Source: an uncultured bacterium (GTDB lineage Bacteria; Patescibacteriota; Patescibacteriia; Magasanikbacterales; GWA2-37-8). Taken from it: a stretch of DNA of 64,000 nt. The stretch covers positions 3,275-67,274 of the forward strand of contig CALCZC010000025.1 of the NCBI GenBank assembly GCA_937903605.1. The letters are read 5' to 3'. Made by a program: the position numbers and the translations under genes. Within the stretch, counting starts at the first letter, position 1; each line of letters starts with the position of its first letter. The notes beneath the pieces are model-generated. The model saw only the letters and a list, made by a program, of their open reading frames with translations. It ran no database searches and was not told the DNA's origin. Of this stretch, positions 7,801 to 31,162 are shown in pieces.

Positions 7801-10009
7801 ATATTGGTCCGGAGATGGTTCTTCAACTTTGAATATAGAAATTTCCAGTGAATACGATCAGATAGAAAAAGTAAGACAATTGATTTACAAAGATTATGGT
7901 TTTGATCCAGTGGAAGCATTGAGCCAAAATGTAGATATTAATGAACTCGGAATAAATGATTTTATTCAACTCGGTAAAGATTTGCAAGAATTAAGAGAAA
8001 CAGGAGTTTCGGTGGAAGCCATCAGAGCGATAATGGCTGATGGTATTCAAGAGGGTGAATTAGAAAATTTATTTCAACTAGCAGATGCGTTTAAGGAAAA
8101 TCCGGACATGCTGGCACAGTTTAATCATCACCTTGAAGGTGGAGGAGAAATGGGTGAATTTTGGGATAACATGTTAGTCAAAAAAGGCGATGGTATTACG
8201 CAAATAATTGCTAGGCAGATTAAAGCCGATCCGAGCTCTTTTGGAATTGATGCCCAAACTCAAGCTAATCCAGACTTACTTGATAAAGCAGCTGCTATGA
8301 TCGCCACCAAAATCGCCAAAACACAAGGTGCAATAGATTTGCCTTGGGGAGAAAAAACTGTAATAAATGAATATGGGGAAACTAGATTATTGATGCCCAA
8401 AAACGGTGAAACCGGTTTGGTATTTTACAATAGAAATACAGGTAAAATAGAAATATTTAATACTCAGACTTATGAAGAGATGAAAGGTGCCGGAGTTGAA
8501 GTTGAAGTAAAAGGAGACACAACAACGACTTTTGATGAAGCAGAGAGACAAAATGCAGAAACTCTACAAATCTTAAATGCGGAAGAAAGAATAAACGTAG
8601 ACGCACAGTATCTCAGAGCGGTTAATAGAATTAAAGCGGACTTTGGAGCCGAAGAAGCACAAAGGTTGATCAATAAAATGAACGGAGTTTATGAAAAATT
8701 GAAAGAAATGGAGGGTGTAGTTGATAAAAATCCTGTAGCTGGTGCGGACAATATGGCTGGTAGATTACACGATCTAAAAGAGACTTTTTTGAAAATTCAG
8801 ACAGATGTGGTTCCTTCTAACTATGGAAATTCTTTGAGAATGTTGGATGATATAGAAAATGCCGTAAAGAGTGATATATCTATAATAGATAGACAAACAA
8901 CCGGCGGAATATCATCAAAATTTTTGGAAGCAAATGCTGGAGTAATAGAAAGTGTCAAAGAGGATAAAAACTTTTTACAGGGTTTAATAGATCGTGATGA
9001 AAAAATATTAGACGAAGGAAACCTACCAAAAGGAGAAAGAATTGCCATAGAAGACCGTCTACTACAGTCTCGTCAAAATATGGCACAAATAGACCAAAGA
9101 CTGGAAGAAGAATTTGGTATTAGACCAGAATCTGCTCCAGTTAAAACCACAGCTGGTTTCAAAGGGGCGGAGCAGGCATTGAATGAAAATACGGAAATGT
9201 TGAATAAGGAAGCGCAGATGGTTGGTGCTGAACAAAAAATCAGCACAGAGACACCCGATGCCTCCAAAGAGACAACTGAAAGTCCAGAGAAATTTTTTGC
9301 TCATCGAGAAAAAACCATCAGAGCTTTGGAAGAAAGTGGTGGTATTGGGCAAAAAAATGTTGAAACAAATGTGCCTGTAGAAAAAACAACCAGTGCGACA
9401 GAAGACATAGAAAAAATCCAACAAGATTTAGCGGCCAAAGATTTGTTAGAAGTTGAAAATAGGGGTAATGGTGTGATTGCAGAAATTAATAGAAATATGA
9501 ACTCGGTGAGATATAGATTTGGCGGGCAGGACTTCACAGATAAATTTAACGAAGCGCGTGTTGCTTATGAAAGTGCTTTACTAAAAGGAGATAGTGTATT
9601 GGCTACAAATAAAATTGGTGAACTGGAAAATTTAAGAAATTTTCAAGAAATGATAAATAGTAAAAATACGGTGGATACGGTTGTGTTACATAATAGAAAT
9701 ATGGCAATACTAGAAGATTTGAGAGAAAAATATCCAACAGGCAGGTTTGCAGATCTTTATAAAGAAGGTGAAAAACTAGGGCTTGGCTATGGAAAACAAA
9801 CTGATATGTTTAAGACAGGTGATGTAAAAGAAATAATTTCTGACATGGCAAAGCTTAACCAGAAGATCAATGAAAATCTTACTAATTACGAACTACCTCC
9901 AAATGCACAGGGTTTTCTTGATAAAGTTCAAGAGGCTTCCAAAGAGATGTTAGCTGGTCAAATTTCAAAACAAGAAATAAATATGATCTTGAGCAGTGTA
10001 AAAAAATAA
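4841..10009 (+). CDS. giant K/E-rich hypothetical protein (1722 aa) with internal Gly-rich amphipathic/TM-like segments
   Basis: A single uninterrupted 5.2-kb ORF. It has N-terminal coiled-coil and low-complexity regions (PESKSESKPEPKPTSQP) and three or four Gly/Ala-rich hydrophobic segments (LNGALGIGKMAPNMVYKVVGTVLGFKAGTDLAMYAAG; ANFALACTPLTMLRIGTIAGGFAA; VGVFSKAAGQAFVGAGLVGLAI). No enzymatic motif was recognised. Confidence 0.7.
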   Translation: MAKKPDQNSQFGDSYPELKGIEKSLSDIEKNKAEGNKEKIKQEIENITQACLDIQGKAIVLWEKAKGQKEKNKATALIDSIVDLKKTADMFKNTDEVNTEEIKKKLIKIQEKTRNVGNLNSNNKKVEIGNKNKVKVAEVIPEASAEDMARYGGKGEQKPPEKQEEVQVDNNIDSNKEENEKKEKEALIAAAKNKEDLFAALDKIGEVKGSSRTYSTEEIKDAIEALFAGVVIAGKGVTRELGIRDKAEELLKKEKTPKNKKDIIEKAENRKTINKEEFKKIIDEIKTAQGLIDFLNSAPGWIDAGDGLFNFADDKSVENNVKKVKEGFLVGFGKEYKAGYLPEILKNKIEEIRNSKKTRSKKPNTETVKSDNDPATESKPESVPTSQPESKSESKPEPKPTSQPDLVPKEKIGARQKIKIEKININKPSEGKEGIRIIEETTVEKPKADEVQKPTEKKKPFDRAAAFTSIIDFMDEREFKKQKKEVRGEIDAIRMMLEANNIDLLKKYFKNGNLEEDTENIFRADARFKWVFELMGETEEKKVEDKGVLTGEKGGIEKIGPAKAEIVQKAENESKKAQEYAAEIKKVQSEESDESKLKWLLNGALGIGKMAPNMVYKVVGTVLGFKAGTDLAMYAAGEALGKVTGKEHVWGDYAEHKKGEREIPEEQKRLYKLFDEYVASFRQAKLDKMEGKSDKEVTQNLKKSIAELYKFIDNNRYIDPKEKNLFKDRLNAIANDFNQENQEITEQQQEEVKKLAEAFLANKISKVQITRDWANFALACTPLTMLRIGTIAGGFAAERFRKGALEYNKKSKTEIEVKQESKFAHRLKFMTIDAAADWGAAIAGGHTRSTQKLENRRHGGEYDYDKQVDTLNEVKKELKNKTYEDYVEECKDKGIKALMEEKQFDDWKKTSLQKLTKKLSGTSMARVGVFSKAAGQAFVGAGLVGLAINADSLANVEWHDAATNFSNNVDKGLDALQLKPLRDLADRYWSGDGSSTLNIEISSEYDQIEKVRQLIYKDYGFDPVEALSQNVDINELGINDFIQLGKDLQELRETGVSVEAIRAIMADGIQEGELENLFQLADAFKENPDMLAQFNHHLEGGGEMGEFWDNMLVKKGDGITQIIARQIKADPSSFGIDAQTQANPDLLDKAAAMIATKIAKTQGAIDLPWGEKTVINEYGETRLLMPKNGETGLVFYNRNTGKIEIFNTQTYEEMKGAGVEVEVKGDTTTTFDEAERQNAETLQILNAEERINVDAQYLRAVNRIKADFGAEEAQRLINKMNGVYEKLKEMEGVVDKNPVAGADNMAGRLHDLKETFLKIQTDVVPSNYGNSLRMLDDIENAVKSDISIIDRQTTGGISSKFLEANAGVIESVKEDKNFLQGLIDRDEKILDEGNLPKGERIAIEDRLLQSRQNMAQIDQRLEEEFGIRPESAPVKTTAGFKGAEQALNENTEMLNKEAQMVGAEQKISTETPDASKETTESPEKFFAHREKTIRALEESGGIGQKNVETNVPVEKTTSATEDIEKIQQDLAAKDLLEVENRGNGVIAEINRNMNSVRYRFGGQDFTDKFNEARVAYESALLKGDSVLATNKIGELENLRNFQEMINSKNTVDTVVLHNRNMAILEDLREKYPTGRFADLYKEGEKLGLGYGKQTDMFKTGDVKEIISDMAKLNQKINENLTNYELPPNAQGFLDKVQEASKEMLAGQISKQEINMILSSVKK

Positions 10010-10185: not shown

Positions 10186-11718
10186 ATGAACACGTTTATC
10201 GCTCAGCAATCGTTGATCTGGATCCTCCTTTGTCTTTGCCTGATTCTTTTGGCGCTTCATTTCAAAAATGCGATCAAAAAGAAGAAAGAAAAACAAAGAC
10301 AGGATTTGGCTTTGGCAGAAGCCAAGAAAGAAGAAAAGCGTATGCTGGATTTACGAGAAGTATTACCCAAGCTTTTTACCGGCGCGCAACTAGATCATTT
10401 ACGGGCTAGACATTTCATTTTCAATGTCATGACGGCCGAAGAAAGAGACACAATGGCGCAGTGGTTTGAAACTCATGTGGAAATTTTCGGAAAATTTGAT
10501 TTTGAAACAGTCATTTCTGAGGAAAAAAGACCGCTGTTGAGCTTCGATGAATTTCAAGCTCTTTTTATGGTCGTTTTTAACGAAGGTTATTTTGATGCGA
10601 ACAAATTGCCTTTTGGTGGACAGTTGGAAATGTCTCAGAAGCTCAAATGGGCACAAATCCGTTTACGCTCTTCCATGCCGTCCAAAGAAGCAGAGGATGA
10701 AATGGACCGCTTAACCAAACAGGTGCGGTTTAGCCTGGAAGATCTCAACAGAGTGCGTAAATTGGCGGTCGCTGAGTTTGAAGCTCTGCAAAAAAAATCT
10801 CTGGAATTTGACCAGGTATTGGATAGATCGGAAAAAGCGGAAAAAGAGCGCTGGGAACTGTTTGTAGATACCAGGGAATTTTTGAAAGATTGGCCGGAAA
10901 TGAAAAAGGCCCTTTCCTTAGCTCGGTCTGAATACGAAGAACATCTCAAGGAATTGCTTGGTATCAAGAAAATGGGGATAGTTCAGATTCTCAAGGATAT
11001 TGCCGGTCACACCGAGGATCTGAACAAAATCAAAAAAGCCCTCGTTGACATGGAGAAGTGGCGTAAAGATAAGGAGAGTCTTCTGGAAAATAACCTGAGC
11101 AACCATCTGAACAAGATGTTTGAGCAGGCCAAAGACGATGCTGCTTTGCAACGTAAGCAGGCTCTGGATGAAATATCCAAAGTTGTGCATCAAGAGCTTG
11201 ATAAAATGGGTGAAGAAATTGCAGAACTACGTCAGAAGTTTGAAATGGTCCCTTCCGTGGTTGAAAAAAAGAAGGAAGAAGGACAATTCAACTGGTCTGC
11301 GACTATCTATGCTTTTTTTTCCATTTGCCTCATTGTTTTCATCTGGAGAGATCTTTCCAGAGAGAATGACCAATCGATGGTGGTTTTGGATAAGATCGCT
11401 CCGGTGGTGCAAGAAAATAATCTACTTTCCGATTCTGATCCGGAGGAATTTATTACAGTAGAGGAAAACGAGATACCGCCTTTTTATTCCGTTAACGAAG
11501 AAGAAGAAACTTCTTATGTTGAAGAAAAAGAATATTTGGAAAAAGAAACTAATTTTAATGAAGAGCCGAAATTGGTTCCAGTGCCGTTGATAGAAAAAAA
11601 GATAGCAAAAAAAGTTTTGGCTTTATGTCAGGACAAGAAATGCTGTCTTGATAGGTTCGGCAAGGACACTAAGACTTGGCCGCAGGCCATAGAGTGTATG
11701 CGATCAGTAAAAAAGTGA
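10186..11718 (+). CDS. hypothetical bitopic membrane protein with coiled-coil and Cys-rich C-terminus (510 aa)
   Basis: An N-terminal TM (LIWILLCLCLILLALHF), a long coiled-coil/charged region, a second TM (WSATIYAFFSICLIVFIW) and a C-terminal CQDKKCCLDRFG…ECM. GC content is intermediate (~42%). Confidence 0.55.
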   Translation: MNTFIAQQSLIWILLCLCLILLALHFKNAIKKKKEKQRQDLALAEAKKEEKRMLDLREVLPKLFTGAQLDHLRARHFIFNVMTAEERDTMAQWFETHVEIFGKFDFETVISEEKRPLLSFDEFQALFMVVFNEGYFDANKLPFGGQLEMSQKLKWAQIRLRSSMPSKEAEDEMDRLTKQVRFSLEDLNRVRKLAVAEFEALQKKSLEFDQVLDRSEKAEKERWELFVDTREFLKDWPEMKKALSLARSEYEEHLKELLGIKKMGIVQILKDIAGHTEDLNKIKKALVDMEKWRKDKESLLENNLSNHLNKMFEQAKDDAALQRKQALDEISKVVHQELDKMGEEIAELRQKFEMVPSVVEKKKEEGQFNWSATIYAFFSICLIVFIWRDLSRENDQSMVVLDKIAPVVQENNLLSDSDPEEFITVEENEIPPFYSVNEEEETSYVEEKEYLEKETNFNEEPKLVPVPLIEKKIAKKVLALCQDKKCCLDRFGKDTKTWPQAIECMRSVKK

Positions 11719-11880: not shown

Positions 11881-11909
11881 TTGACAAAATTGTCTATTTG
11901 TGCTATAAT
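11881..11909 (+). promoter_or_regulatory. sigma70 promoter TTGACA-17-TGTGCTATAAT, with a ~235-nt leader
   Basis: Consensus -35 at 11881-11886 and extended -10 at 11901-11909. It is nearly identical over ~50 nt to the promoter at 19967-20016. A long untranslated leader runs to the ATG at 12146 and contains inverted repeats (tttgatcc…ggtgatcaaa). Confidence 0.6.
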
Positions 11910-12145
11910 ATGTCGTTACAATCAAAAAGGATTTTGATCCACTGTGGAAGAGGGTGATCAAAAGAACTATGAAAATAACTCCTTCCCGGGAGCGTTTTTT
12001 GTTCTTAAAATAAATTTTCTTTTTAACTGCACGGTTTAAAACATAAACCTTGTTAATAAGGAGAAAATTGTTCATTAAAATTAAAGATTTCGTTTATATA
12101 GGAAGTCCAGGATATTAACAACAGGAAAACACCAGGAGGTGTACG

Positions 12146-13129
12146 ATGAAGAAGATGATGCTTTTTGTCGCGATAGTTTTCGCGATGGTTACCGTGACTG
12201 CGCAGCAGAGCGTGTATCCCCTTAATCCCAGTTCCACAATCACGGTGCAGGAATGCATCGATCTGATGAACGCTGCCAAAACCGCCCAGACCAAAACCAC
12301 CGAAATGAAAAAGAAAGTGGAAGGGGTGGTCGCTGCTGTCAAAAAGGGTAACAAGACTCCGGAAGATGGGTCCAAAGAGATCTCCAAAGAGATCAAGGAG
12401 AACCCCGAAGTTCCTCTGGAAAGCAGAAAGGCGGCTAACGAAGTTGCCAGGAAAGTCCTTTATAAAAAGGATCTGACCGAAGCAATGGAAGCTTTCGAGA
12501 CCACTTTCAAGGCGGACCTCGCCAGATTGGAGGAGAAAATCTCCGGTCTTGAGGAAAGGATGGCAAAGCTTGAAGAAAGCGATGCTAAACAGAATGAACG
12601 CCTTGGCAATGTCGAGGAGGTGGTCGCAGATCATGAAAACCGGCTGGATAACCTGGAAGAGGGAATATTCTCCGGTTACTTCGGTGCAAAGTTTCTCACT
12701 TCTTCGGTGTTCGATACTGCCGGTGGTGGCGAACTGGGTATGACCGTGAAAATCGGCAAGCTCAATGGCCCGTTCAAAGCCGACTTCGGCGCAACCCTGT
12801 ATGGTTCGGAGATCAAAAATCTCATAGGAATCGAAGGCAGGGGCATAATCACCTGGATGAGCGACGATTTCAAATTCGTCAAGCTCGGCCTTGGTGGTAT
12901 GGGCGGTGGCATGTTTGATGTCAATAACGCCGGAAGAGTTTCCACTTCCTACGGCGGTGGGCAGTTCGAGATTTCGGCCGTTTACAAACGGTACGAGCTC
13001 TATGCCGATGTCAACCTCGGCGCAAGGGACATGCGCAAGATAAGCGGCCAGCACGAAACCAGTTTCTACTGGGGAGTGATAACTGGCGTCCGCATAAACT
13101 TCGGCGGTCCGTTCGAGACCGTCAAGTAA
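12146..13129 (+). CDS. secreted protein: signal peptide, coiled-coil stalk, C-terminal beta-rich (barrel-like) domain
   Basis: Signal peptide MKKMMLFVAIVFAMVTVTA-QQ. A heptad-like region (LARLEEKISGLEERMAKLEESDAKQNERLGNVEEVVADHENRLDNLEE) is followed by ~170 aa of alternating hydrophobic/Gly-rich strands (GMTVKIGKLNG…YELYADVNLGA…FYWGVITGVRINFGG). GC ~50%; RBS aggagg. Confidence 0.65.
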   Translation: MKKMMLFVAIVFAMVTVTAQQSVYPLNPSSTITVQECIDLMNAAKTAQTKTTEMKKKVEGVVAAVKKGNKTPEDGSKEISKEIKENPEVPLESRKAANEVARKVLYKKDLTEAMEAFETTFKADLARLEEKISGLEERMAKLEESDAKQNERLGNVEEVVADHENRLDNLEEGIFSGYFGAKFLTSSVFDTAGGGELGMTVKIGKLNGPFKADFGATLYGSEIKNLIGIEGRGIITWMSDDFKFVKLGLGGMGGGMFDVNNAGRVSTSYGGGQFEISAVYKRYELYADVNLGARDMRKISGQHETSFYWGVITGVRINFGGPFETVK

Positions 13130-13322: not shown

Positions 13323-14174
13323 ATGAAGAACGTACTTTTTTTCTTTGCCGTCGTGTGTGCGATGGTTTTCACCGTTTCCTGCGCCAACTGCACTTACAAT
13401 GAGAAGCTCGGCGCGTGTATCGAAGACATGCCCGAAGAGACCGATGACGCCAAGACCGACATCGACGACGCCAAGACCGACGACGAAAAGTCGGACACCG
13501 ACACTGTCGAAGGTCCCAAACAGGGTGAAGAAGGCGGAAAATGCTTCGCCAACAAGTCCTGTATGGAAGGGCTGGAATGCATTAAGCTCAATGAAGACTA
13601 TATCTGCATCGTAGCAGAAGAAGTCGATGACGACCTCGCAAGCGACGACGAAGAGACCGACGACGAAACCAGCGATGATGACGCAGTCGATCCCGACCTT
13701 GGAAAAGAAGGTCATGGCTGTCTTCCGAACGGAACCTGCAACGAAGGTCTCGTATGTGACCAGGCTTCCGAGAACGAAACCGATGTCTGCGTAAAAGCGG
13801 TCGGCGTAGTCGGAGATAAGGACGGCTCGTGTAAGCCCGATCGGACTTGTAACACAACCTCACTGGTTTGTTACCGTGAAGACTTCGTCTGTCATAATAT
13901 GCCGACCGTCGGCACACGCACCGTTTGCTGGTCGCGTGAACTCAATACCTCACCGGTGCAGGATTCCTGCTCGAAAGAAGGGGGCATCGCTCCCGCGGTA
14001 TTTGAGTATGTCAGCGGGACAAAAACCCCGAACTGCGAAGGACTCGTGAATGTGGACCCGGAGTTCGAATGCGTGCGTATCAACGCAACGGTCGAAACCT
14101 TCCGTAATTCCACACCGGCCGAGCGAGATGACCTCGCCCTCACTTCGTCGTTCTACCTTCCGCCCATAAATTAA
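13323..14174 (+). CDS. acidic Cys-knot secreted lipoprotein, family member 1
   Basis: MKNVLFFFAVVCAMVFTVSC-ANCTYNEKLGACIEDMPEE: a signal peptide ending in Cys, then D/E/T-rich linkers and repeated knots G.C.PN.TC.EGL.C (KCFANKSCMEGLECI; GCLPNGTCNEGLVCD; SCKPDRTCNTTSLVCY). An RBS (ggagga) lies 5 nt before the ATG at 13323. Confidence 0.65.
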   Translation: MKNVLFFFAVVCAMVFTVSCANCTYNEKLGACIEDMPEETDDAKTDIDDAKTDDEKSDTDTVEGPKQGEEGGKCFANKSCMEGLECIKLNEDYICIVAEEVDDDLASDDEETDDETSDDDAVDPDLGKEGHGCLPNGTCNEGLVCDQASENETDVCVKAVGVVGDKDGSCKPDRTCNTTSLVCYREDFVCHNMPTVGTRTVCWSRELNTSPVQDSCSKEGGIAPAVFEYVSGTKTPNCEGLVNVDPEFECVRINATVETFRNSTPAERDDLALTSSFYLPPIN

Positions 14175-14181
14175 CGGCGGA

Positions 14182-14250
14182 CCCCAAGTGCTTTTGGGGT
14201 GACTACAGCAACTTTTACTTGACAGCCGATGCACCGGCTGTCTTTTTTTT
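14182..14250 (+). terminator. tandem hairpins with a strong Rho-independent terminator
   Basis: ccccaa-gtgctt-ttgggg (14182-14199), then gacagccg-atgcac-cggctgtc followed by tttttttt (14221-14250). Confidence 0.7.
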
Positions 14251-14331
14251 ATCAATTTTCCCCTCCTTTTGATAAGAGGAGGCCTGCCTGCCGGTAGGCA
14301 GGACTAGGGTGGAGTCAAGTGGAAAAAATAG

Positions 14332-14360
14332 TTGACAAATTATAAATTTTATGCTACATT
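14332..14360 (+). promoter_or_regulatory. candidate promoter TTGACA-17-TGCTACATT
   Basis: -35 ttgaca at 14332-14337 and a TG-extended -10-like tacatt at 14355-14360, upstream of the EF-hand repeat gene. The -10 is weaker than consensus. Confidence 0.4.
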
Positions 14361-14525
14361 TAGCTGTTAAAAGATTTTCCTTTTTCGGCGCTTTTAATGG
14401 GTTTTTTGTATTTATTTTGAAAGTGCAAAAAAGAGGGAAAGCTCTTTGAAAAATTAGCAACTTTAGATAGGGAGAACAGAATGAAAAACGGTTTTAACAA
14501 CAGCAACTGCACGGAGGTGCACGCA

Positions 14526-17500
14526 ATGAAGAACTACTTCGTTTTTTTCATCGCCGTAGCGATGATGCTCATGCTTGCTTGTGAAAGCAGCAAAGACGGT
14601 CGTGATGGTCGTGATGGTCGCGATGGTATCGCGGGCCAGGACGGCCAGGATGGTCAGGACGGGGAAGATGCTCCGGTTTCGCTTTCGCGCTCCGAAAAAG
14701 CGAGTGAAGAAGAAGCGCGTGAGAACTGTGGCGAGGACATCGTCAACGCCAATTGGATCTGTACCGGCGTGGACGAAAATGAAAATGGCTATCTCGACGA
14801 TTATGAATTCGCCGAATGCCATATTGAATGCGCGGGTGCGCCCGGTCACAGTGCATTGGTTGCAAAAACCGATACCACACAAACCGAGTGTCCCAACGGC
14901 GGATTTCATTTTCTTTCCGGTATTGACACCAACGACAATGGCGAGCTTGATGCCGAAGAAGTTTTGGTTGATGAGCTCGTTTGTAACGGCGTTGATGGTC
15001 AGGATGGTATCGGTGATGTAGTTCGTACCAGTACGGAACCCGCCGGCACCAACTGCCAAAACGGTGGTCAGAAAATCGAGCGTGGTCGCGATCTCAACCG
15101 CAACGGTCAGCTGGATGTGTCCGAGATTACCAGTACAAATTATGTATGCAATGGTATTGACGGTACGAACGGGCATGATGCGAGGACTCGCACCAGTATT
15201 ACCAATGATCCGACATTGTGTGCCAGCGGTTCCGGAGTTATTTTTGAATCCGGTACTGACAACAATGACAACGGAGTGCTCGATGATCCGGAGGTTTCCA
15301 CTACGGATGTTATCTGTGATGGTGCCAACGGTAAGACCACACGCATGATCGTGGCCACAGAACCCGCAGGAACAAACTGCGCAGTCGGCGGTTTTTCCGT
15401 CGTTTATGGCGTAGATGAAAATGACAATGGACTTCTCGATACTACCGAGCAGTCGCCCGCACAGTACATCTGTCATGGACAAGACGGTTACAGTGTCGTG
15501 ATGAGAGTCACGGCTGATATTGCTGTTTGTTCATGGAACGGATACAGGTTGCAGTTCGGTCAGGATCTTGATCGTAATGGTATCTTGGATACCGGCGAGG
15601 AAACATCCGACTTTTATATCTGCAACGGATCCGATGGTCTCATTTCCCGCATCAATATTTCCGACGAGCCCAATGGTGAAAACTGTGCGGCCAGCGGAAA
15701 AAGAATAGATACGGGGATGGACATCAATCGCAACGGCCTGCTTGACAGCACCGAGATTACCACGACCAACTATGTCTGCAACGGTGTGCAGGGTCCGCAG
15801 GGAGTTCGGGGATACAATTCGCTTTCGCGGATAACTCCGGATCTTGGCGGAACAGTCTGCACCTGGGGTGGATATTATTTGGAAGTCGGCACAGACATCA
15901 ATGAAGACTGGATCTTGGATCTGGATGAAGTTGGTCACAGTGCTTATGTCTGCAACGGTATAGATGGTAAGACCTGCAGTTCCATACTCAACGATGAACC
16001 CATCGGTACGAACTGTGCTTACGGCGGAAAAATCGTGTATTCCGGTTGTGACGATGATTACAACGGTGTGCTGGACCTCTACGAGGTCGTTCATACCGAC
16101 TACATCTGTAACGGCGCCACCGGTGCGATAGGTCCTGCCGGGTACAATGCCCTGACCAATATGCAAATAGCGGTCAGCGGTTGTCCCAATGGCGGATATG
16201 TTTTCACTGCCGGCACAGACGCCAATGATGATCAGATCCTTGATCTCACGGAAGTGACGGTCACGAATCTTATCTGTCATGGTGTCAATGGCCAGGATGG
16301 TTATACCTATCGTGTGCAGATGGTTGATGAACCCGTGAGTACAAATTGTGTTCAAGGTGGCAAGGCTATCAGTGGAGGTATAGACAGCAACCGTAATGGT
16401 GTGCTCGATCCTTCCGAAGCCGATGATCCGGTTTACATCTGTCATGGTGCAAACGGACTGCCCGGCGCCAATGGTCAAAACGGTCTAAGTATGGCTTTTG
16501 TCATCAGCGTGGCGAGCATTTCCGAATGCCCGGCCGGTGGTGAGAAGCTGGAGCTTGGATTGGATATTGATGCCAGTGGCGTGCTTGAGCTCGTTGAAGT
16601 TACTAGCACGGTTCTCATCTGCAATGGTCAGAACGGTCAGAACGGTAAAAATTCTTTGACCACTATGACCGTGGAGCCCATAGGTACAAACTGCGCCAAA
16701 GGCGGCCATCTCTTGTTGGTCGGTATTGACGACAATGAAAACGGTATTTTGGATTCCAGTGAAGCCGGGGTTCCGCAGTATGTCTGCCATGGTTTGGATG
16801 GCATCAATGGTGCCAACGGGACCAACGGCCACAATGCTTTGGCGATGGTTACCACATCCACTTTGGGATTCTGTCCCAATGGCGGATCCGAACTGCGGAC
16901 CGGAACTGATCTCAATGATGATGGGGTTTTGAATGCGGGCGAAGTTTCTTCGTTTGCGCTTATCTGTAACGGCCAGAACGGCGCCAATGGTGCCGACGGT
17001 TACAGCTCCAGAACTACGATGATCAGTGAGCCCGCAGGTGCCAATTGCCAGGCCGGAGGATTTTTTATTATCTCCGGTACTGATACCAACAACAACGGCG
17101 CGTTGGATGTTACGGAAATTGAATATTCCGGATACATCTGCAACGGCATAAATGGGAATCCCGGCAGTAATGCCGTAACCCGTGGCCGTCTCGCGCTCGT
17201 TTCTGAATGTCTTAATGGCGGAAGCATCGTGGAAACCGGTACGGATAGTAACAACAATGCTGTACTGGACGATGTGGAAGTCATGACGATAAGTTATCTC
17301 TGCAACGGTGATCCGGGAACAAATGGCCAGGATGGCATTTCCTATCGTGTTATCATCACCAATGAATCCGCTGGAATTAATTGTCAGGCCGGTGGAAAAA
17401 AATTGGAAGGTGGTTACGATACTAACAGGAATAATATCCTGGATCCAGGCGAAATCGTAATGACCGAGTATGTCTGCAACGGCATGGACGGTCAGGATGG

Positions 17501-18296
17501 TCAGGATGGTGTGAACGCACTGCTGCGTATGGAAGATGAACCCGCAGGGGTAAATTGCGAACGCGGTGGCAAAGCAATCCTTTCCGGTTACGATCTGGAT
17601 AGTGATAATTACCTGGATGACACCGAAGTGCTTGCACAGAGTTATCTCTGCAACGCCAAGATCGTTTACTCGGTTGGCGCAGAAAGCACCTATGGTACAT
17701 TCACGGCCTATACAGCCAGCACGGTTTCGTATTGCAAAATATATGGTACGACTCTTGAAGCCGTTGCTTACATTAGCGATGTGGGTAATGCGGCGGTAGT
17801 GGCTACGGATTGGGAAGCGGTGGAGTGTTTCAACACTTCCCATGTCCGGGTGAACATCATTTCTTGTTCCGGTAGCGGTTTTGCGCAGAGCAATGTCGGT
17901 GTGTGCACTTATGACGGATCCGTGTATGCGCGTGGCGGTTTGGGGCAGACTTGTAAGCCCAATCGTGCGTGTGATAGCGGTGTCTGCCGACTTCTGGACA
18001 CGACCTGCATTACCAAACCCTCTCCGGGAGCGGGCGAATACGCTTTTTATTGGGACGGCACTATGAACTCCGGCGGAACCACTTGCGAAAGCTATGGTGG
18101 TAACTACTACTCACCGGTGGTGGGTCAGTGGGATATTTCCGGAGTGCCCAACTGTAATGCCGATCTCGGTGATCCGGTTAGGGGACTCAAGTTCTACACC
18201 GGGTGCATCACGGATCAGAGTGATTTTGATACTCTTGATCCTGCCACTCGTCATTGCACCGGTCCGGCTTATGCCACGGTGCTGGCGCCCTGGTAA
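14526..18296 (+). CDS. giant secreted lipoprotein with ~18 tandem EF-hand-loop repeats and collagen-like GXY runs (about 1257 aa from the preferred start)
   Basis: The preferred start is the MKNYFVFFIAVAMMLMLAC Met at 14526 (RBS ggaggtg); the ORF-track start is 14481. After the Cys come 8 GXY triplets (GRDGRDGRDGIAGQDGQDGQDGED). Then come ~60-aa repeats, each with a canonical 12-residue EF-hand loop D-x-[DN]-x-[DN]-G-x-[LI]-D-x-x-E, for example DTNDNGELDAEE, DLNRNGQLDVSE, DNNDNGVLDDPE, DENDNGLLDTTE and DINRNGLLDSTE. Each repeat is flanked by Y[VI]C[NH]G and EP.GTNC Cys motifs and short GXY runs (CNGVQGPQGVRG, CHGANGLPGANGQNG). The C-terminal ~215 aa is Cys-rich and has a YWD…GGTTCES module. 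Confidence 0.75.
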   Translation: MKNYFVFFIAVAMMLMLACESSKDGRDGRDGRDGIAGQDGQDGQDGEDAPVSLSRSEKASEEEARENCGEDIVNANWICTGVDENENGYLDDYEFAECHIECAGAPGHSALVAKTDTTQTECPNGGFHFLSGIDTNDNGELDAEEVLVDELVCNGVDGQDGIGDVVRTSTEPAGTNCQNGGQKIERGRDLNRNGQLDVSEITSTNYVCNGIDGTNGHDARTRTSITNDPTLCASGSGVIFESGTDNNDNGVLDDPEVSTTDVICDGANGKTTRMIVATEPAGTNCAVGGFSVVYGVDENDNGLLDTTEQSPAQYICHGQDGYSVVMRVTADIAVCSWNGYRLQFGQDLDRNGILDTGEETSDFYICNGSDGLISRINISDEPNGENCAASGKRIDTGMDINRNGLLDSTEITTTNYVCNGVQGPQGVRGYNSLSRITPDLGGTVCTWGGYYLEVGTDINEDWILDLDEVGHSAYVCNGIDGKTCSSILNDEPIGTNCAYGGKIVYSGCDDDYNGVLDLYEVVHTDYICNGATGAIGPAGYNALTNMQIAVSGCPNGGYVFTAGTDANDDQILDLTEVTVTNLICHGVNGQDGYTYRVQMVDEPVSTNCVQGGKAISGGIDSNRNGVLDPSEADDPVYICHGANGLPGANGQNGLSMAFVISVASISECPAGGEKLELGLDIDASGVLELVEVTSTVLICNGQNGQNGKNSLTTMTVEPIGTNCAKGGHLLLVGIDDNENGILDSSEAGVPQYVCHGLDGINGANGTNGHNALAMVTTSTLGFCPNGGSELRTGTDLNDDGVLNAGEVSSFALICNGQNGANGADGYSSRTTMISEPAGANCQAGGFFIISGTDTNNNGALDVTEIEYSGYICNGINGNPGSNAVTRGRLALVSECLNGGSIVETGTDSNNNAVLDDVEVMTISYLCNGDPGTNGQDGISYRVIITNESAGINCQAGGKKLEGGYDTNRNNILDPGEIVMTEYVCNGMDGQDGQDGVNALLRMEDEPAGVNCERGGKAILSGYDLDSDNYLDDTEVLAQSYLCNAKIVYSVGAESTYGTFTAYTASTVSYCKIYGTTLEAVAYISDVGNAAVVATDWEAVECFNTSHVRVNIISCSGSGFAQSNVGVCTYDGSVYARGGLGQTCKPNRACDSGVCRLLDTTCITKPSPGAGEYAFYWDGTMNSGGTTCESYGGNYYSPVVGQWDISGVPNCNADLGDPVRGLKFYTGCITDQSDFDTLDPATRHCTGPAYATVLAPW
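14760..17650 (+). repeat. tandem ~185-195-bp coding repeats (about 18 copies, diverged) within the EF-hand lipoprotein gene
   Basis: Protein-level periodicity of ~60-65 aa seen directly in the translation. The DNA copies are diverged, so these are old repeats. Confidence 0.7.
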
Positions 18297-18315
18297 GTTG
18301 CTTTAGTTCATTTCA

Positions 18316-18343
18316 GGCGGTCCTTCTAGGACCGCCTTTTTTA
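18316..18343 (+). terminator. Rho-independent terminator
   Basis: ggcggtcc-ttct-aggaccgcc followed by tttttt. It is a structural paralog of the terminator at 19876. Confidence 0.7.
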
Positions 18344-18353
18344 TTATAGGTAT

Positions 18354-18382
18354 TTGACATACATTGATGAGTGATATATAAT
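18354..18382 (+). promoter_or_regulatory. sigma70 promoter TTGACA-17-TATAAT
   Basis: -35 ttgaca at 18354-18359 and tataat at 18377-18382. Confidence 0.55.
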
Positions 18383-18447
18383 GGTTTGTTAAAAGTTCTT
18401 TGATATTTTAGACAGATAATAAACCATAATTCATGATGGAGGTTGTC

Positions 18448-19854
18448 ATGAAAAGTGTAGTTTTGACCGCGGTTGCGATCTTTTTTGTTTCCATGTTTTT
18501 CATTTCCGGATGTGCCAACTGTAATTATTCCGAACAGTTGGGAGCGTGTCTTGAAGAGACACCGGATAATGGTGTTGACAAAGAAAATAATGACAATTTT
18601 GTTTCAGACAAAGAAATGACTGATGAAGAAGCCAACAATTTGCCAAAAATCGGTGAAGAAGGCGGAGGGTGTTATCCAAACGATACTTGTGACTCCGGTT
18701 TGAAGTGTATCAAGATCAATGAGAAGATGATGTGTATCAAATTGTCCGAAGAAAAAGATGCAGAGGTTGAAGTTCAGGATTTTGCTGTTGAAAACGAATT
18801 ACCTGATAATGATACTGCATCAAACACTGAGAATGATTCTTACTATCAAGATGACACTGAATCATCTGATTTTGAAAATGAGATACCGGATGTTGATCAT
18901 GTTATCAAATGTGATAAACCGGTTGTAGCCGTAGCCTTCAAAGGACCGCAAGGTTATTGTGGTGGCCAATTTCCTTTTGGCCGTTGGCATGACAATGCGG
19001 TTGTTAAAACCGGACAAGAAGTGACCATAGTAGTTGCCAACCCGTTGGGGACTATTCCGACAGGATACAATCTTGCCAATGAGCTCAAGATAATGGTAAA
19101 AATTTCCCAAGATACGGATTATCTCAACAGTAACTTATCTAATGGATTTTTTATTGGAAACAACGCGCTGACCATGGGTCTTACACCGGGTGGTGGTAAC
19201 AAAACGGAAATGAAATTGATTTTTGCAAAAAAATCATCTTCCATTATGGAGCCACAGAAAGTGATTGTCTCCATAGTTCAAACCACCGGTTATGACGGAT
19301 ATGTTGCCCTTGAGAAAGATAAGTTCGGCGGAGTCTATTGTAGCCCCCATGGAACCTGTCCCGTTTTTAGCGAAGTGATTTTGTGGGTAGTCGACTCTTC
19401 CGATTCCATTCAATGGGGTGAACTGAATCAGAGATGTTTGCCGGATAAAAGATGCTCGCGAAATTATTCCGACCAGTGTGTATCCGGTGACGATCAAGAA
19501 TACTTTTGTACCCAATATGGAAATACTTGTGTTTCCAAACCAAAATTGGAAGTGGATCAGGAATATCGCTATTGGGATGCTACCATAGATTGGTATACAG
19601 GTTCGAACTCCGTTTATAACGGTAAAACCACCTGTGAAAGCAAAAGTTCGAGCAATCGTTTTTGTTATCCACCCGATCCATGGACTTGGAATAACGATAG
19701 TGTTTTACCTGCCTGCCAATGCAGTGACAACTCCTTGTTTAAGCCGGCTGGTGCAATGGGATGCGTTGTTGATAAAGGAAGTCGGTGGGTAGATTGTAAA
19801 AGCGATATTTTTTGGAAATACAATTTTTACTCACCCTCCTATATCTGTCAGTAG
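18448..19854 (+). CDS. acidic Cys-knot secreted lipoprotein, family member 2
   Basis: Preferred start MKSVVLTAVAIFFVSMFFISGC-ANCNYSEQLGACLEETPD (RBS ggaggt). The N-terminal module is near-identical to the 13323 protein. It has the GGGCYPNDTCDSGLKCIKI knot and a C-terminal YRYWDATIDWYTGSNSVYNGKTTCESK module. Confidence 0.7.
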   Translation: MKSVVLTAVAIFFVSMFFISGCANCNYSEQLGACLEETPDNGVDKENNDNFVSDKEMTDEEANNLPKIGEEGGGCYPNDTCDSGLKCIKINEKMMCIKLSEEKDAEVEVQDFAVENELPDNDTASNTENDSYYQDDTESSDFENEIPDVDHVIKCDKPVVAVAFKGPQGYCGGQFPFGRWHDNAVVKTGQEVTIVVANPLGTIPTGYNLANELKIMVKISQDTDYLNSNLSNGFFIGNNALTMGLTPGGGNKTEMKLIFAKKSSSIMEPQKVIVSIVQTTGYDGYVALEKDKFGGVYCSPHGTCPVFSEVILWVVDSSDSIQWGELNQRCLPDKRCSRNYSDQCVSGDDQEYFCTQYGNTCVSKPKLEVDQEYRYWDATIDWYTGSNSVYNGKTTCESKSSSNRFCYPPDPWTWNNDSVLPACQCSDNSLFKPAGAMGCVVDKGSRWVDCKSDIFWKYNFYSPSYICQ

Positions 19855-19875
19855 TTGATAATATAGTTCTTTTTA

Positions 19876-19903
19876 GGTGGCTCTTCTAGAGCCACCTTTT
19901 TTA
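19876..19903 (+). terminator. Rho-independent terminator
   Basis: ggtggctc-ttct-agagccacc followed by tttttt. Confidence 0.7.
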
Positions 19904-19966
19904 TTTAGTAAAAAATGGCTTAAATAAGCAAAATTTATTTTGGCTAAGATTAGCTAAGTTTACCCC

Positions 19967-19995
19967 TTGACAAAATCGTCAAAATGTGCTATAAT
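19967..19995 (+). promoter_or_regulatory. sigma70 promoter TTGACA-17-TGTGCTATAAT, with a ~205-nt leader
   Basis: -35 at 19967-19972 and extended -10 at 19985-19995. The promoter and leader start (…tataatatcacgttacaatcaaaaag) are paralogous to 11881-11930. The leader contains gagagag/ctctctc inverted repeats. Confidence 0.6.
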
Positions 19996-20201
19996 ATCAC
20001 GTTACAATCAAAAAGCGTTGGAGAGAGCGCGGAAGTAATAAAAGGCCAAATTCCGTATCTCTCTTTATCAAAAGAGAGTTTTGTTTTTCTAGCCCATTAT
20101 CCCATCAACTAGATTGATTGGATAAAGGAGAGAAAAAATAAAAATCAGGTTCCTTACAATATAGAGTTAGAGTCCAAAAAACCAATAAGTGGAGGAAAAC
20201 C

Positions 20202-21362
20202 ATGAAAAAGCTCATCACCACGGTTGTGGTCGCCTTCTTTTTCGTCGCCTGTGGCGGCAGCAATGTCAACAATGTCAATGACGAATTCGTCGGCAACGAC
20301 GAAAGCATCAATGATGAAATCACCGACAACGAGACTCCCGATGAGATCGTCAGCGATGACGAGATTAACTGGGATGAAGTCGGCCATGAAGGGGAGCCAT
20401 GCTTCCCGAACAATACTTGTCACGAAGGGCTTAAATGCCGTGACGGCAAGTGTGTGGACGACGGTGGCATGTCCGATACCGGTAAACTCAATCATGAGTG
20501 TTACCCGGACGGTTCATGCAGATCAGACGACATGATCTGTGAGGAAGGAATTTGCGTCGAGCGTAAAGCCGATGCGGATGAAACTCTCACGGATAATGAA
20601 GTCGCGGATGATGTTGTGACTGATGACGAAACTTCGGATGAAATCATTTCCGATGAGGAAGTGGTGGATGAAGAAGTGATGACTGACAACGACATCGTTG
20701 ACAATCCCGTGGTCGACAATGACACGGCCGAAGATCCTCTGACCGGGATTGAAGCGGGACATCCCTGCTACCCCAACAACACCTGCGATAGTATCAAAGG
20801 TCTTGTATGTCAGAACGGTCTCTGTCAGTATCCTGGCACCACGCCGGATGTTGATACTGCGACTCCGGACGAGGACGAAGTCCTTGTCGATGATGAGACA
20901 GTCACTGATTCCGACGTTGCTTCTGATGAAGAAGTGACAGACGATGATGTGCTTCTCACAGAAGAAGAACCGGTGGTTGATAATGATACCACTGAAGTTC
21001 CGGATCAGGACAATCTGCCGTCCGACATCGGAAACAAGGGGCAGAGTTGTTACCCCAACCACACCTGTAATGGTGTGCTGGTCTGTATCGTTGGCACTGA
21101 AATATGTGCTGATGAACCGATTGCTGTCCTCGGACAGTATGAGGGCAGATGTTGGGACTACAAGGATCCTCTTACAGGAAAAACCACCTGTGAAAAAGAG
21201 GGCTGGTACTGGTCTCCTGCTATCTGGGCCGAGACTTCGGACCAATTCCCGCTTTGTATCGGTAGCAGCACCAGACGTCCGTATCTTGCGGAATGTCAGT
21301 TGCAAACCAACAGCGGAGAGCCTCGTAGTTCGGTGTGGTATAAATATCCGACCACGCCGTAA
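20202..21362 (+). CDS. acidic Cys-knot secreted lipoprotein, family member 3
   Basis: MKKLITTVVVAFFFVAC-GGS lipoprotein-like signal. Four knots (EPCFPNNTCHEGLKCRDGKCV; HECYPDGSCRSDDMICEEGICV; HPCYPNNTCDSIKGLVCQNGLCQ; QSCYPNHTCNGVLVCIVGTEICA) are separated by long D/E/T/V-rich linkers. C-terminal module CWDYKDPLTGKTTCEKEGWYW. Confidence 0.7.
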   Translation: MKKLITTVVVAFFFVACGGSNVNNVNDEFVGNDESINDEITDNETPDEIVSDDEINWDEVGHEGEPCFPNNTCHEGLKCRDGKCVDDGGMSDTGKLNHECYPDGSCRSDDMICEEGICVERKADADETLTDNEVADDVVTDDETSDEIISDEEVVDEEVMTDNDIVDNPVVDNDTAEDPLTGIEAGHPCYPNNTCDSIKGLVCQNGLCQYPGTTPDVDTATPDEDEVLVDDETVTDSDVASDEEVTDDDVLLTEEEPVVDNDTTEVPDQDNLPSDIGNKGQSCYPNHTCNGVLVCIVGTEICADEPIAVLGQYEGRCWDYKDPLTGKTTCEKEGWYWSPAIWAETSDQFPLCIGSSTRRPYLAECQLQTNSGEPRSSVWYKYPTTP

Positions 21363-21641
21363 ATTCTAACTCTAGGATTTAACATAATGGACCGGGCACC
21401 TGACTTTACGTCAAGGCCCCGGTCCAATCTTTATATGAGATTGTCACATTCTCTCCTGATGACGATCTCAGATAATATCAAAAAACCTTTCACTTTTCGT
21501 GAGGGGTTTTTTGTTTTATAAGAGGGGAAAGTGTGATATAATATATTTAAATAATAAATTCAAAATCTCAAATCCCAAATTATTTGGAACTTGTGATTTT
21601 TAATTTGTAATTTATTTTAAATATTAATATTTAAAATCTCT

Positions 21642-22964
21642 ATGTTTATTCGAAAAATTGTTTTTTTAACGGCAGTGTTTTTATTTATGCCGTTGGTTGT
21701 TTCTGCTGAAACAACTTCTACCACGTCAACGGTAGAAACTATTGTGTTCAAGGTTTTTAACGCTGATTGTGAAAATATCTCCGAAGGCCTTTTGGCCAAT
21801 AGTTGTTATGTCAAAAAAGCCGCTGATAATCTGGATTGTTCGTATTGTGAAAAAATAAATTGGTTTGGCGGGCGTGTTTCTTGCTGTGTCGGTGTGATAA
21901 ACAGTTTCACTCGAGAGGGATTGTGTGACAATTTGACCGAAACAAAATTGAAAGAAAAATGTTTATTACATTTGGCAGTCAAAACCAAAAACGGAGCTTT
22001 GTGTAAACAAATAAAAGATAAAAATGAAAATTTTGCTTGTCGAGCTGAGATAGCCAAGCAAGCTACTGATTTGAAGCAGTGCGATAAAATGAATAAAATA
22101 GAAAAAGATTATTGCCTTTTGAAATTTGCAGAAACGCAAAAGAATGAAAAAATTTGCGCCAAAATAGGTGAACGCGGAGTTAAAAGATTTTGTTACAATA
22201 AATTGGCGGTGTTAAAAAACAATGAAAAGCTTTGTCCTTTAACTGCTAATGCGGATAAATGTTATTTGGCAGTAGCGGAAAGTAAAAAAGATGGAGCGCT
22301 TTGCGCTAAAATCAAAGACGGGTCTTTGGTTGGGTATTGTTTGGACAGAGTGGCAATAGTTAAAAAAGATTATAATGCTTGCAATTTGATAAAAGGAAAT
22401 TATAAATTTGATTGTATTTTTGATGTTGGTAAAGCAAAAGGTAGCGCCATGTCTTGTGAAAAAATAACGGATAAAGAAAAAAATTATACATGTGTTACGC
22501 ATTTTGCGACAGAACGTGAAGATTTGAGTTATTGTAATTATCTGAAAGATAAAACTAAACTTACTGCATGTACCGACGAAGTAGCAAAAACCATAAATGC
22601 CAGAGTTCAAGACGCTCAACGGATATCCGATTTAAAATCTATGCAAACGGCTTTGGAACTTTATTTTATGGATAATAATGAATATCCAGAAGGAAAAGAT
22701 ATTGTTCTTGGTGGTTCAAATGGAGTTTGTTTGATAAATACCGGAATTGAAGGAGAAAATTGGACCTGTCCGGAAAATCCGACAGTTGTTTATTTTAATA
22801 GTATTCCCGCAGACCCTATTAACACTGGTATTTATACTTATACCTATACCAAAACCTCTGGAGTCTCACCTTGTTATCATATTATTGCCAGATTTGAAAC
22901 AAATTATGGCGAATATAAGGCCGGGCCGTTTTATGTAAGTTGTGAAGGTGGAATTTTTCAGTAA
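21642..22964 (+). CDS. secreted Cys-repeat protein with a C-terminal type IV pilin / T2SS pseudopilin-like domain
   Basis: Signal peptide MFIRKIVFLTAVFLFMPLVVSA. About 7 tandem ~35-aa repeats carry spaced Cys (…K.GALC.KIKD….C….A). The C-terminus (ARVQDAQRISDLKSMQTALELYFMDNNEYPEG……CPENP) resembles the pilin-like globular domain (RDA.R..DL……LE.Y..DNG.YP). Confidence 0.6.
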   Translation: MFIRKIVFLTAVFLFMPLVVSAETTSTTSTVETIVFKVFNADCENISEGLLANSCYVKKAADNLDCSYCEKINWFGGRVSCCVGVINSFTREGLCDNLTETKLKEKCLLHLAVKTKNGALCKQIKDKNENFACRAEIAKQATDLKQCDKMNKIEKDYCLLKFAETQKNEKICAKIGERGVKRFCYNKLAVLKNNEKLCPLTANADKCYLAVAESKKDGALCAKIKDGSLVGYCLDRVAIVKKDYNACNLIKGNYKFDCIFDVGKAKGSAMSCEKITDKEKNYTCVTHFATEREDLSYCNYLKDKTKLTACTDEVAKTINARVQDAQRISDLKSMQTALELYFMDNNEYPEGKDIVLGGSNGVCLINTGIEGENWTCPENPTVVYFNSIPADPINTGIYTYTYTKTSGVSPCYHIIARFETNYGEYKAGPFYVSCEGGIFQ

Positions 22965-30418: not shown

Positions 30419-31162
30419 TTATATCTTGATTTTTTTATCATTTTTGGCCAAGAAAGTTTTTGGAAAAAACTTTCTTGCTGTTTTTAGAGCCAAACCAAAC
30501 TTATCTTTTGTTGCGTATTGACCCGCATCAAAATGGGTTAAAAAAAGTTTTTTAACTTTTGACGATATTGCAACTTTACTTGCTTGCTCGGGAGAAGTAT
30601 GTCCCCACCTAAAATCTTTATCATTTGGTAATAAACCACATTCATGAATAAGAATGTCTGCATTTTGTGCCAATTTTATCTCATTTAAACATGGGGCTGT
30701 ATCGCAACAATAAACAACAACCTTATTGTTATCTTTTATTTTTATACCCAGAGTTGGAACAATATGTTTTAGCGCAGTCACTTCAAAATTAAATGGCAAA
30801 ATATAATTTCCGGGTTTTACCACCTTATATTTGATTGGAAATTTATAATTTTTTAACGGGACGGTGAATGGTTTAGAAATTATTTTTGTAATATTATCTT
30901 TGCTTACCTTACTGCAAATAATAGTTAATCCCCGTTTCAATCTCAAACCAGACAAACCATGAAGGCCACAAATATGGTCTATATGTGTATGTGAAATAAA
31001 AAGATAAACAGGTTTGTTTTTTATGATATAGTTTTTAACTTTATATAATCCGAAACCGGCGTCTAAAATAATATATTCTTTGGACGTTTCAACGAGTGTG
31101 CAAATAGTGCTGCCGTTTTTATTATCAAACCAACCATTGGTTCCTAAAAATGTTATTTCCAT
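30419..31162 (-). CDS. metallo-beta-lactamase fold hydrolase
   Basis: MEITFLGTNGW… ISHTHIDHICGL (HxHxDH motif). Confidence 0.65.
   Translation of the reverse strand: MEITFLGTNGWFDNKNGSTICTLVETSKEYIILDAGFGLYKVKNYIIKNKPVYLFISHTHIDHICGLHGLSGLRLKRGLTIICSKVSKDNITKIISKPFTVPLKNYKFPIKYKVVKPGNYILPFNFEVTALKHIVPTLGIKIKDNNKVVVYCCDTAPCLNEIKLAQNADILIHECGLLPNDKDFRWGHTSPEQASKVAISSKVKKLFLTHFDAGQYATKDKFGLALKTARKFFPKTFLAKNDKKIKI

Follow-up and report, generated by a model that had tools for sequence, protein, structure and literature searches.

A 64,000-nt stretch of a Candidatus Magasanikbacteria genome (Candidate Phyla Radiation (CPR)/Patescibacteria), here called the window and used for all positions below unless another locus is named, contains an island of five plus-strand genes between 12.1 and 21.4 kb, which we label U, A, B, C and D. 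The last four appear to encode a genuine modular paralogous family of extracytoplasmic lipoproteins, namely A (13323..14174), the giant B (14526..18296), the strain-specific C (18448..19854) and D (20202..21362), and their open reading frames (ORFs) lie where an earlier reading of this DNA, the original prediction, had placed them. U (12146..13129) encodes a secreted protein that combines a type-I signal peptide with a coiled coil and a Gly-rich C-terminal region of beta type. The upstream and downstream neighbours of the island are called T and V. For comparison, we used two related loci, L002 and L003, whose B proteins are 77% and 95% identical to that of the window, respectively.

A–D are built from recurring modules. 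N, a short N-terminal disulfide loop, is found in A (13380–13430) and C (18511–18561). The 4-Cys mini-module that the original prediction had labelled a knot occurs three times in A (13527–13613, 13704–13796 and 13818–13898), once in B (17937–18014), once or twice in C (18655–18741, and a degenerate copy at 19417–19530) and four times in D (20385–20459, 20484–20561, 20751–20831 and 21033–21113), where the copies sit between acidic D/E/T/V linkers. CT, a C-terminal module of ∼90 amino acids (aa) with four Cys, always stands directly after a knot, at 13899–14171 in A, where it has diverged, and at 18015–18293, 19531–19851 and 21114–21359 in B, C and D. C also holds an orphan beta-rich middle domain (18898–19407), and B a collagen-like G-X-Y run (14592–14666), an array of 17–18 DUF7151 repeats (14718–17663) and a region X to which no family was assigned (17664–17936).

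The N-terminus proposed to be common to A and C is indeed present in both, with the motif C-ANC-x-Y-x-E-x-LGAC-[IL]-E-[DE] beginning straight after the lipobox Cys. The A orthologues of L002 and of P0166, one of the outside relatives (P0166–P0170) that we obtained from a protein scan, have retained this motif. Masking of compositional bias did not remove the likeness: using BLASTP with SEG and composition-based statistics, A and C aligned with 63.5 bits over 93 aa. The knots have a Cys spacing of C-x5-C-x5-C-x4-9-C, together with G/P/N positions. A cystine knot has at least six Cys and three disulfides, one of them threading a ring, and our modules are no true cystine knots because each has exactly four conserved Cys. 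Thus, the repeated modules predicted for A, C and D hold up while their Cys-knot label does not, and B carries one of them as well. Their number also varies between orthologues, as the A proteins of L002 and P0166 have four knots versus three in the window.

The C-terminal string [YW]WD...G-x-TTCE was found in B, C and D as predicted, and A has a diverged counterpart (CWSRE...SCSKEGG). All four proteins align four Cys in this part, directly after the knot. We scored the post-knot part alone against leave-one-out profiles and compared the results with shuffled sequences (2000 for A and C). B and D reached 28.4 and 28.8 bits, respectively, with shuffles at no more than 8–10 bits, and the outside lipoprotein P0168 scored 41.5 bits with the CT profile; over B, D and P0168 together, the highest shuffle scores were 8–14 bits. 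A reached 14.0 bits, a score matched by 1 of 2000 shuffles, and C 14.1 bits, matched by none of 2000. By these profile scores, sharing of CT is solid for B and D.

The PROSITE lipobox PS51257, which requires K/R, a hydrophobic core and [LIVMFWSTAG](2)-[LIVMFYSTAGCQ]-[AGS]-C with the Cys at residues 15–35, is present in all four proteins (Cys20 in A, Cys19 in B, Cys22 in C and Cys17 in D) as well as in P0166–P0170; U has an ordinary signal peptide. Beyond the lipobox Cys, we counted 18 Cys in A, 52 in B, 22 in C and 20 in D, amounting to 4–7% of residues. All of these counts are even, as expected if every Cys were disulfide-bonded, so the parity check suggested with the original prediction came out in its favour, and the corresponding counts in P0166–P0170 are even too. 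The proteins are also strongly acidic, with D+E making up to 29% of residues and net charges of −36 for A, −75 for D and −115 for B. We infer that A–D are lipidated, form disulfides and are exposed at the surface.

B belongs to the Pfam family DUF7151 (PF23657), which it matches in 17 stretches with 679 bits (cut-off 27.2; E = 8.4e-210). Its 17–18 units of ∼46 aa stand in tandem and have a constant Cys–Cys spacing of 31 residues. B had originally been described as an EF-hand protein, and at the level of the motif this is well founded: 11 loops match the Ca2+-binding pattern PROSITE PS00018 exactly, compared with a mean of 0.03 and a maximum of 1 in shuffled sequences. For the fold it does not hold. 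No Pfam EF-hand family matched B at E ≤ 0.1, and an AlphaFold model of three repeats (pLDDT, the predicted local distance difference test, 84) builds each repeat from three strands, a loop and a short helix rather than from helix-loop-helix units. B therefore carries DxDxDG-type loops in a different scaffold, with the loops predicted to bind Ca2+. Searching the PDB with the three-repeat model using Foldseek gave no match (best E = 3.2). The collagen-like run comprises ∼8 consecutive G-X-Y triplets (aa 23–47), with further runs of 4–5 triplets between repeats, and the N-terminus of B scores 16.2 bits against the collagen repeat PF01391 (cut-off 27.2). We found no literature on DUF7151, and likewise none on lipoproteins of Magasanikbacteria.

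None of the modules N, knot and CT belongs to a Pfam or NCBIfam family, and A, C and D gave nothing above threshold in Pfam, NCBIfam or PHROGs and no match among PDB sequences. The best score against the EB module (PF01683), a 52-position profile with a cut-off of 24.3 bits, was 21.1 bits for the whole of D; isolated knots scored 17–19 bits and covered only profile positions 16–40. For DUF7107 (PF23416), window knots stayed at or below 18.7 bits (cut-off 24.6), and matches to Dickkopf_N were also sub-threshold. The Cys spacing and G/P/N positions of the knots thus weakly resemble those of EB, DUF7107 and EGF-like/Dickkopf-N domains, but no window knot reaches a cut-off, only half of the EB or DUF7107 profile is covered, and the knots here are modules of bacterial lipoproteins set within acidic linkers. 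P0170, an outside protein with about eight tandem knots, does pass the DUF7107 cut-off (30.2 bits versus 24.6), which makes a distant link possible but does not establish membership of the window proteins.

To find the modules elsewhere, as had been proposed, we searched several large collections. In a word-indexed search of 5.8 billion clusters, C returned only itself, and a profile of 23 knots returned 10 candidates with one 66-aa match. When we ran the knot + CT profile with HMMER, in full, over 1.84 billion representative proteins, eight came back: C itself, the orthologue of B in L002, one protein resembling D and one resembling A, the three outside knot-only lipoproteins P0167, P0169 and P0170, and P0168. 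The last is a 137-aa lipoprotein consisting of CT alone (E = 3.6e-5 in 1.84 billion proteins). Different motifs of P0168 match A, B and D, which shows that CT is one autonomous domain family. Knots therefore do recur in outside lipoproteins, whereas CT appears confined, in the HMMER scan, to this lineage plus the one stand-alone homologue. We also scanned the GTDB species genomes with the full alignment of D, in which low-complexity N-terminal patterns were chosen, and then with its knot + CT. Neither scan gave a relative, so no species-representative genome holds D; no viral contig holds it either. Judged by these searches, the knot and CT appear to be undescribed domain families.

The island is compositionally foreign. 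The GC content at third codon positions (GC3) is 0.52–0.62 in U, A, B and D (0.62 in U) and 0.38 in C, compared with 0.24–0.31 in 10 of the 11 flanking genes measured and 0.37 in the eleventh. Its edges are sharp, at ∼12.0 and ∼21.4 kb. At the same locus in L002 (7600–15450) the contrast is larger, with 0.63–0.81 in the island and 0.27–0.47 in the flanks; despite much divergence between the window and L002, GC3 is still far from the host value. The flanking genes serve envelope biogenesis and housekeeping, and among them are Wzz, Wzy_C, glycosyltransferases, GHL15, MurB/C/J, an MraY-like transferase, an LtaS-like sulfatase, SmpB, tmRNA and LepA. We assigned the host from LepA, whose 90% identity cluster also contains a protein from a Candidatus Magasanikbacteria metagenome-assembled genome (Patescibacteria/Parcubacteria group). 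As regards horizontal acquisition, composition and boundaries fit, but the other expected marks are missing: there is no integrase or transposase, no att-like repeats flank the island, no tRNA adjoins it (the tmRNA is 11 kb away), and neither phage families (PHROGs) nor viral contigs gave a match or a donor.

Gene order is conserved, with the island syntenic in the window, L002 and L003, three lineages in all. In L002, the order is T-U-A-B-D-V-Wzy_C, which matches the window minus C. C is a strain-specific insertion: it is missing from both related loci, with no more than a short spacer separating the B terminator from the D promoter in L002 and 875 nt of unrelated non-coding DNA at the corresponding place in L003. 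The protein combines an A-type N-terminus, the orphan middle domain and a B/D-type CT. As the slot bounded by the B terminator and the D promoter (18345–19966) differs in content among the three loci, with C in the window, unrelated DNA in L003 and almost nothing in L002, we regard it as a hot spot for insertion or replacement.

The transcription signals on the plus strand divide the island into several units. Upstream of U and A, a perfect sigma-70-type promoter (TTGACA-17-TATAAT with TG) and the first ∼20 nt of the transcript occupy 11881..11929. This is copy 1 of a 49-nt repeat whose second copy (19967..20015), also a perfect promoter with the start of a leader, precedes D. The two copies are 88% identical and lie ∼200–230 nt upstream of the start codons of U and D, so that the U–A and D transcription units appear to begin with a common promoter and leader. 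There is no terminator between U and A, and the two genes are therefore probably co-transcribed; an intrinsic terminator follows A (14221..14242). B is preceded by a promoter-like site with TG (14332..14360; 10/12 positions) and C by a perfect sigma-70-type promoter (18354..18382), and the promoters at 11881, 18354 and 19967 all match sigma-70 at 12/12 positions. The intrinsic terminators after B (18304..18345, the left edge of the C insertion) and after C (19864..19905) are copies 1 and 2 of a 42-nt repeat. They are 81% identical, differ by compensatory stem changes and bracket C. The terminator after D (21479..21513) marks the right edge of the high-GC3 island.

The leaders themselves (window 11881–12010 and 19967–20095; L002 7440–7500 and 14020–14140; L003 5562–5690) have further features. 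Those of U–A and D both contain a terminator-like hairpin followed by a T run, in D within a conserved stretch from after 20015 to ∼20095 (+). The D leader is ∼90% identical between the window and L002, compared with ∼69% for coding DNA, and its changes are confined to loops. A stem GGAGAGAG/CTCTCT could compete with the leader terminator. The shared leader may be an attenuator or a small RNA; Rfam gave no match for the leaders, and the fold z-score is only −2.3.

Comparing the window with L002, we found 62–88% identity for knots and CT; the linkers reach only 19–47% and contain many indels. The ratio of non-synonymous to synonymous substitution rates (dN/dS) between the window and L003 is 0.11 for the knots + CT of D and 0.23 for its linkers; in B, it is 0.13 for the repeats and 0.10 for region X, knot and CT. 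The island genes are thus under purifying selection, with a dN/dS of about 0.1. The folded modules appear constrained, and the linkers, having the lowest identity, frequent indels and about twice the dN/dS of the folded modules, seem to behave as spacers defined by composition.

To place this architecture, we analysed 121 DUF7151 proteins. Their arrays begin a median of 41 aa from the N-terminus, right behind the signal peptide; beyond the arrays, other domains occupy a median of 376 aa and include RCC1 propellers, BNR/sortilin, Ig-like, PD40, Calx-beta and Lcl_C. Since the array lies near the N-terminus and varied domains come after it, DUF7151 arrays look like stalks with interchangeable heads. 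As in B, the N-terminus is lipobox-like in 73 of 117 homologues, the array is N-terminal and other domains are C-terminal. B differs in being encoded by a CPR bacterium, the named homologues belonging to Myxococcota, Bacteroidota and Pseudomonadota. Of the 120 best homologues, none but B and its two orthologues has a knot + CT after the array.

A second type of stalk became apparent in a metagenome scan with P0169, which gave 11 loci (L009–L019) from bacterial metagenome-assembled genomes of an unrelated lineage, encoding a large paralogous lipoprotein family. Its members consist of a lipobox, an acidic D/S/T/E linker, one knot, a second acidic linker and often EGF-like motifs, and seven of the nine that were scanned have the Lcl C-terminal domain (PF07603) at their end. 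Members, found for example at L017 7854–15836 and L018 5355–7931, are up to 2,661 aa long, and in places two copies lie side by side. Their knot is nearly invariant (KQGELYGECYPNETCNKGLxCD.ENNICIKD), and this near-identity across paralogues with differing C-terminal parts suggests gene conversion or a common partner.

Lcl is a stalk-and-head adhesin of Legionella that appears lollipop-shaped in electron microscopy and binds glycosaminoglycans through its C-terminal domain (PMC11162425). Lcl and A–D both have an extended repetitive stalk, collagen-like in Lcl, that presents or would present a small C-terminal binding domain, and B too starts with a short G-X-Y run. Moreover, Lcl_C domains sit where CT sits, both on knot + acidic-linker stalks and on DUF7151 arrays (P0006 and P0109). 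There are also differences: CT is no Lcl_C domain and has four conserved Cys, while the Lcl C-terminal domain has no disulfides, and Lcl, which leaves the cell via the type II secretion system, is attached peripherally and has no lipid anchor. We did consider CT as a degenerate Lcl_C/DUF1566 domain, since 'W..(n)..C-E..GG.Y.SP' in CT recalls 'W..(n)..YC....GY.DWRLP', and rejected it on the profile comparison given below.

As equivalent stalks elsewhere, of both the knot + acidic-linker and the DUF7151 type, carry adhesin-type heads, we tentatively favour a reading, to which we give a little less than an even chance, in which A–D are membrane-tethered surface lipoproteins of the stalk-and-head kind, and CT is the binding head that they share for attachment. 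The lipidated N-terminal Cys would tether each protein to the cell membrane. It would be followed by an extended spacer: in A, C and D, a strongly acidic low-complexity linker punctuated by two-disulfide 4-Cys modules, and in B, a short collagen-like run and then the 17–18 disulfide-closed DUF7151 repeats with EF-hand-type Ca2+ loops. All four would end alike, in one 4-Cys module and CT, which the spacers would hold at differing distances from the membrane, through and beyond the wall layers. CT, as the working head, would bind a common extracellular ligand, most likely some component at the surface of a partner or host cell, or of the matrix, and thereby mediate attachment. The genes may have been acquired as, or built on, the foreign island inserted among envelope-biogenesis genes, and may later have diversified as modules were gained or lost and the whole gene C was inserted.

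Several results weigh against the stalk-and-head reading. The head role of CT is drawn from architectural analogy, and since CT is unrelated to Lcl_C and its predicted model was poor, we infer binding from position, not from homology. The hhalign comparison of the CT and Lcl_C alignments gave a probability of 0.07% (E = 0.7), no Pfam match to PF07603 was found at E ≤ 0.1, and searches of the PDB with the CT and knot profiles found nothing, so that CT has no detectable relation to a solved structure. An AlphaFold2 model of the D knot + CT, based on an alignment of four sequences, reached a pLDDT of 43, with only the knot at 63–74. Without the adjacent knot, sharing of CT appears marginal for A and C. 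Aromatic residues make up 14–17% of CT in B, C and D and 7.5–10.5% in A, with a window average of 11%; as this is only slightly above the mean, we did not use aromatic richness as a sign of carbohydrate binding. We found neither Lgt and LspA nor disulfide-forming genes within the 64-kb window; Lgt is encoded by other CPR genomes (PMC4736985). Finally, in a CPR cell of monoderm type, a protein with a lipid anchor might just as well remain inside the wall zone.

The acidic character of the proteins lends itself to a different explanation, in which the linkers and the Ca2+ loops of B bind divalent cations and form a hydrated, cation-cross-linked layer near the membrane that buffers ions or stiffens the envelope, the Cys modules serving only for stability. 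The high net negative charge of the stalks, the 11 exact EF-hand-type loops and the envelope-biogenesis genes next door would all suit such a cation-binding matrix. Yet the linkers, on which it depends, are the least conserved parts of the proteins, and it would leave unexplained both why one conserved CT caps all four proteins and why equivalent stalks elsewhere bear adhesin-type heads. We therefore consider it unlikely. The original prediction had likewise suggested cation-binding proteins that work together with B; cation binding by the acidic linkers and physical cooperation among A–D remain conjecture, and comparative architecture points to spacers or stalks with a common C-terminal head instead.

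The same C-terminal unit on four co-located and partly co-regulated genes might also be expected if CT, or knot + CT, were an assembly or docking module that binds other CTs, U, or the wall or S-layer, thus joining A–D into a hetero-oligomer or fixing them at both ends. U is conserved across the island loci and probably co-transcribed with A, the short G-X-Y runs in B hint at trimerisation, and a trimer-promoting role has been proposed for DUF1566/Lcl_C as well (PMC11162425). On the other hand, P0168, with CT alone on a lipid anchor, fits a self-sufficient domain better than a docking tag, and because L002 and L003 dispense with C, a fixed stoichiometric complex is unlikely. Overall, docking seems rather improbable to us.

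Disulfide-rich modules could in principle be toxins or inhibitors (of proteases or ion channels, for example) that are secreted or displayed as effectors against a host or competitor. Weak matches to Toxin_12 in 5 of 23 knots scanned, and single ones to Defensin_2 and Colipase_C, would point that way. However, none of them reaches the Pfam threshold, each module has only four Cys, and the lipoboxes argue for tethering rather than release. The knots are, moreover, interspersed in long spacers and in the outside family stand beside the anchor, not at the exposed end. We consider effectors very unlikely. Least probable is that the genes are decaying or hitch-hiking horizontally acquired cargo without function, or an assembly chimera: a GC3 about twice that of the flanks and the near-absence of public homologues of A, C or D would be compatible with this, but at least 11 contigs, assembled independently from several samples, show the identical arrangement, synteny is kept between lineages that differ by 23% in B, dN/dS is about 0.1, all reading frames are intact, and the three 12/12 promoters and clean terminators are in place, so that both are essentially excluded and the claim that the locus is one modular family and not random cargo is borne out.

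Going beyond the stalk-and-head reading that we prefer, one may speculate, although we doubt it, that CT is a lineage-restricted host-recognition domain grafted onto two imported stalk types, a Ca2+-rigidified DUF7151 rod and a tether of acidic linkers and 4-Cys modules, yielding adhesins of graded reach with which an episymbiont captures and holds its partner cell. In that case, the island would be an attachment cassette, portable and horizontally acquired, and its shared promoter/leader a common attenuator switch, possibly responsive to a ligand or to ions. Outside the cultured Saccharibacteria, little is known of how CPR/Patescibacteria recognise their partner cells and keep hold of them, and the island gives candidates for a Magasanikbacteria lineage. 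CT is small, conserved and able to stand alone, making it a candidate head that could be used as a probe for a ligand or host. The knot + acidic-linker tether is a building plan, apparently not described before, that recurs among the lipoproteins of at least two unrelated bacterial lineages, and reading DUF7151 arrays as stalks with interchangeable heads offers a working functional hypothesis for a Pfam family without literature. A limitation is that the family has a very narrow distribution.

The overall kind, modular stalk-and-head surface lipoproteins and Cys-rich surface proteins of CPR bacteria, is already known. In CPR Peribacteria, clustered genes encode strain-variable Cys-rich extracellular proteins with a proposed role in attachment (Anantharaman et al. 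2016, PMC4736985), a proposal with which our preferred reading agrees. A–D resemble them in the CPR host, gene clustering, signal peptides, a Cys content of 4–7% and strain variation, a likeness by description that implies no sequence relationship. The Peribacteria proteins are much larger (∼1,655 aa on average) and are not described as having a lipobox with acidic linkers, a common C-terminal module or a foreign-GC island.

U and the neighbouring genes gave some additional observations. The coiled coil of U spans ∼130 aa, its C-terminal half is Gly-rich and beta-looking, and no family or PDB match was found beyond coiled-coil noise. The U orthologue in L002 (7618–8601) ends in ...ARYHF, like the aromatic C-terminal signature of outer-membrane beta-barrels; CPR bacteria are thought to lack an outer membrane, so this end is odd. 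T (10186–11718), immediately upstream of the island, encodes a 510-aa membrane and coiled-coil protein with an intermediate GC3 of 0.44, and it appears to evolve very fast, being only 27% identical to its L002 counterpart. An ORF of 1,722 aa at 4841–10009 had no Pfam or NCBIfam match. V (21642–22964) is a secreted protein of native GC with 28 Cys spaced regularly at ∼12–14 residues and, near its C-terminus, a weak type IV pilin/GspG-like segment (T2SSG, E = 0.012, below the cut-off). It has no module in common with A–D and is 70% conserved in L002. Further away, the positions 475–867 (−), 987–1466 (−), 30419–31162 (−) and 59627–60256 (+) jointly cover the tmRNA gene, the adjoining smpB, a metallo-beta-lactamase-fold gene and an ankyrin-repeat protein. 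The copy of the metallo-beta-lactamase-fold gene in another locus, L004, has a precomputed match to the Anti-Pycsar Apyc1 family, and the ankyrin repeat is a fold often linked to host interaction.

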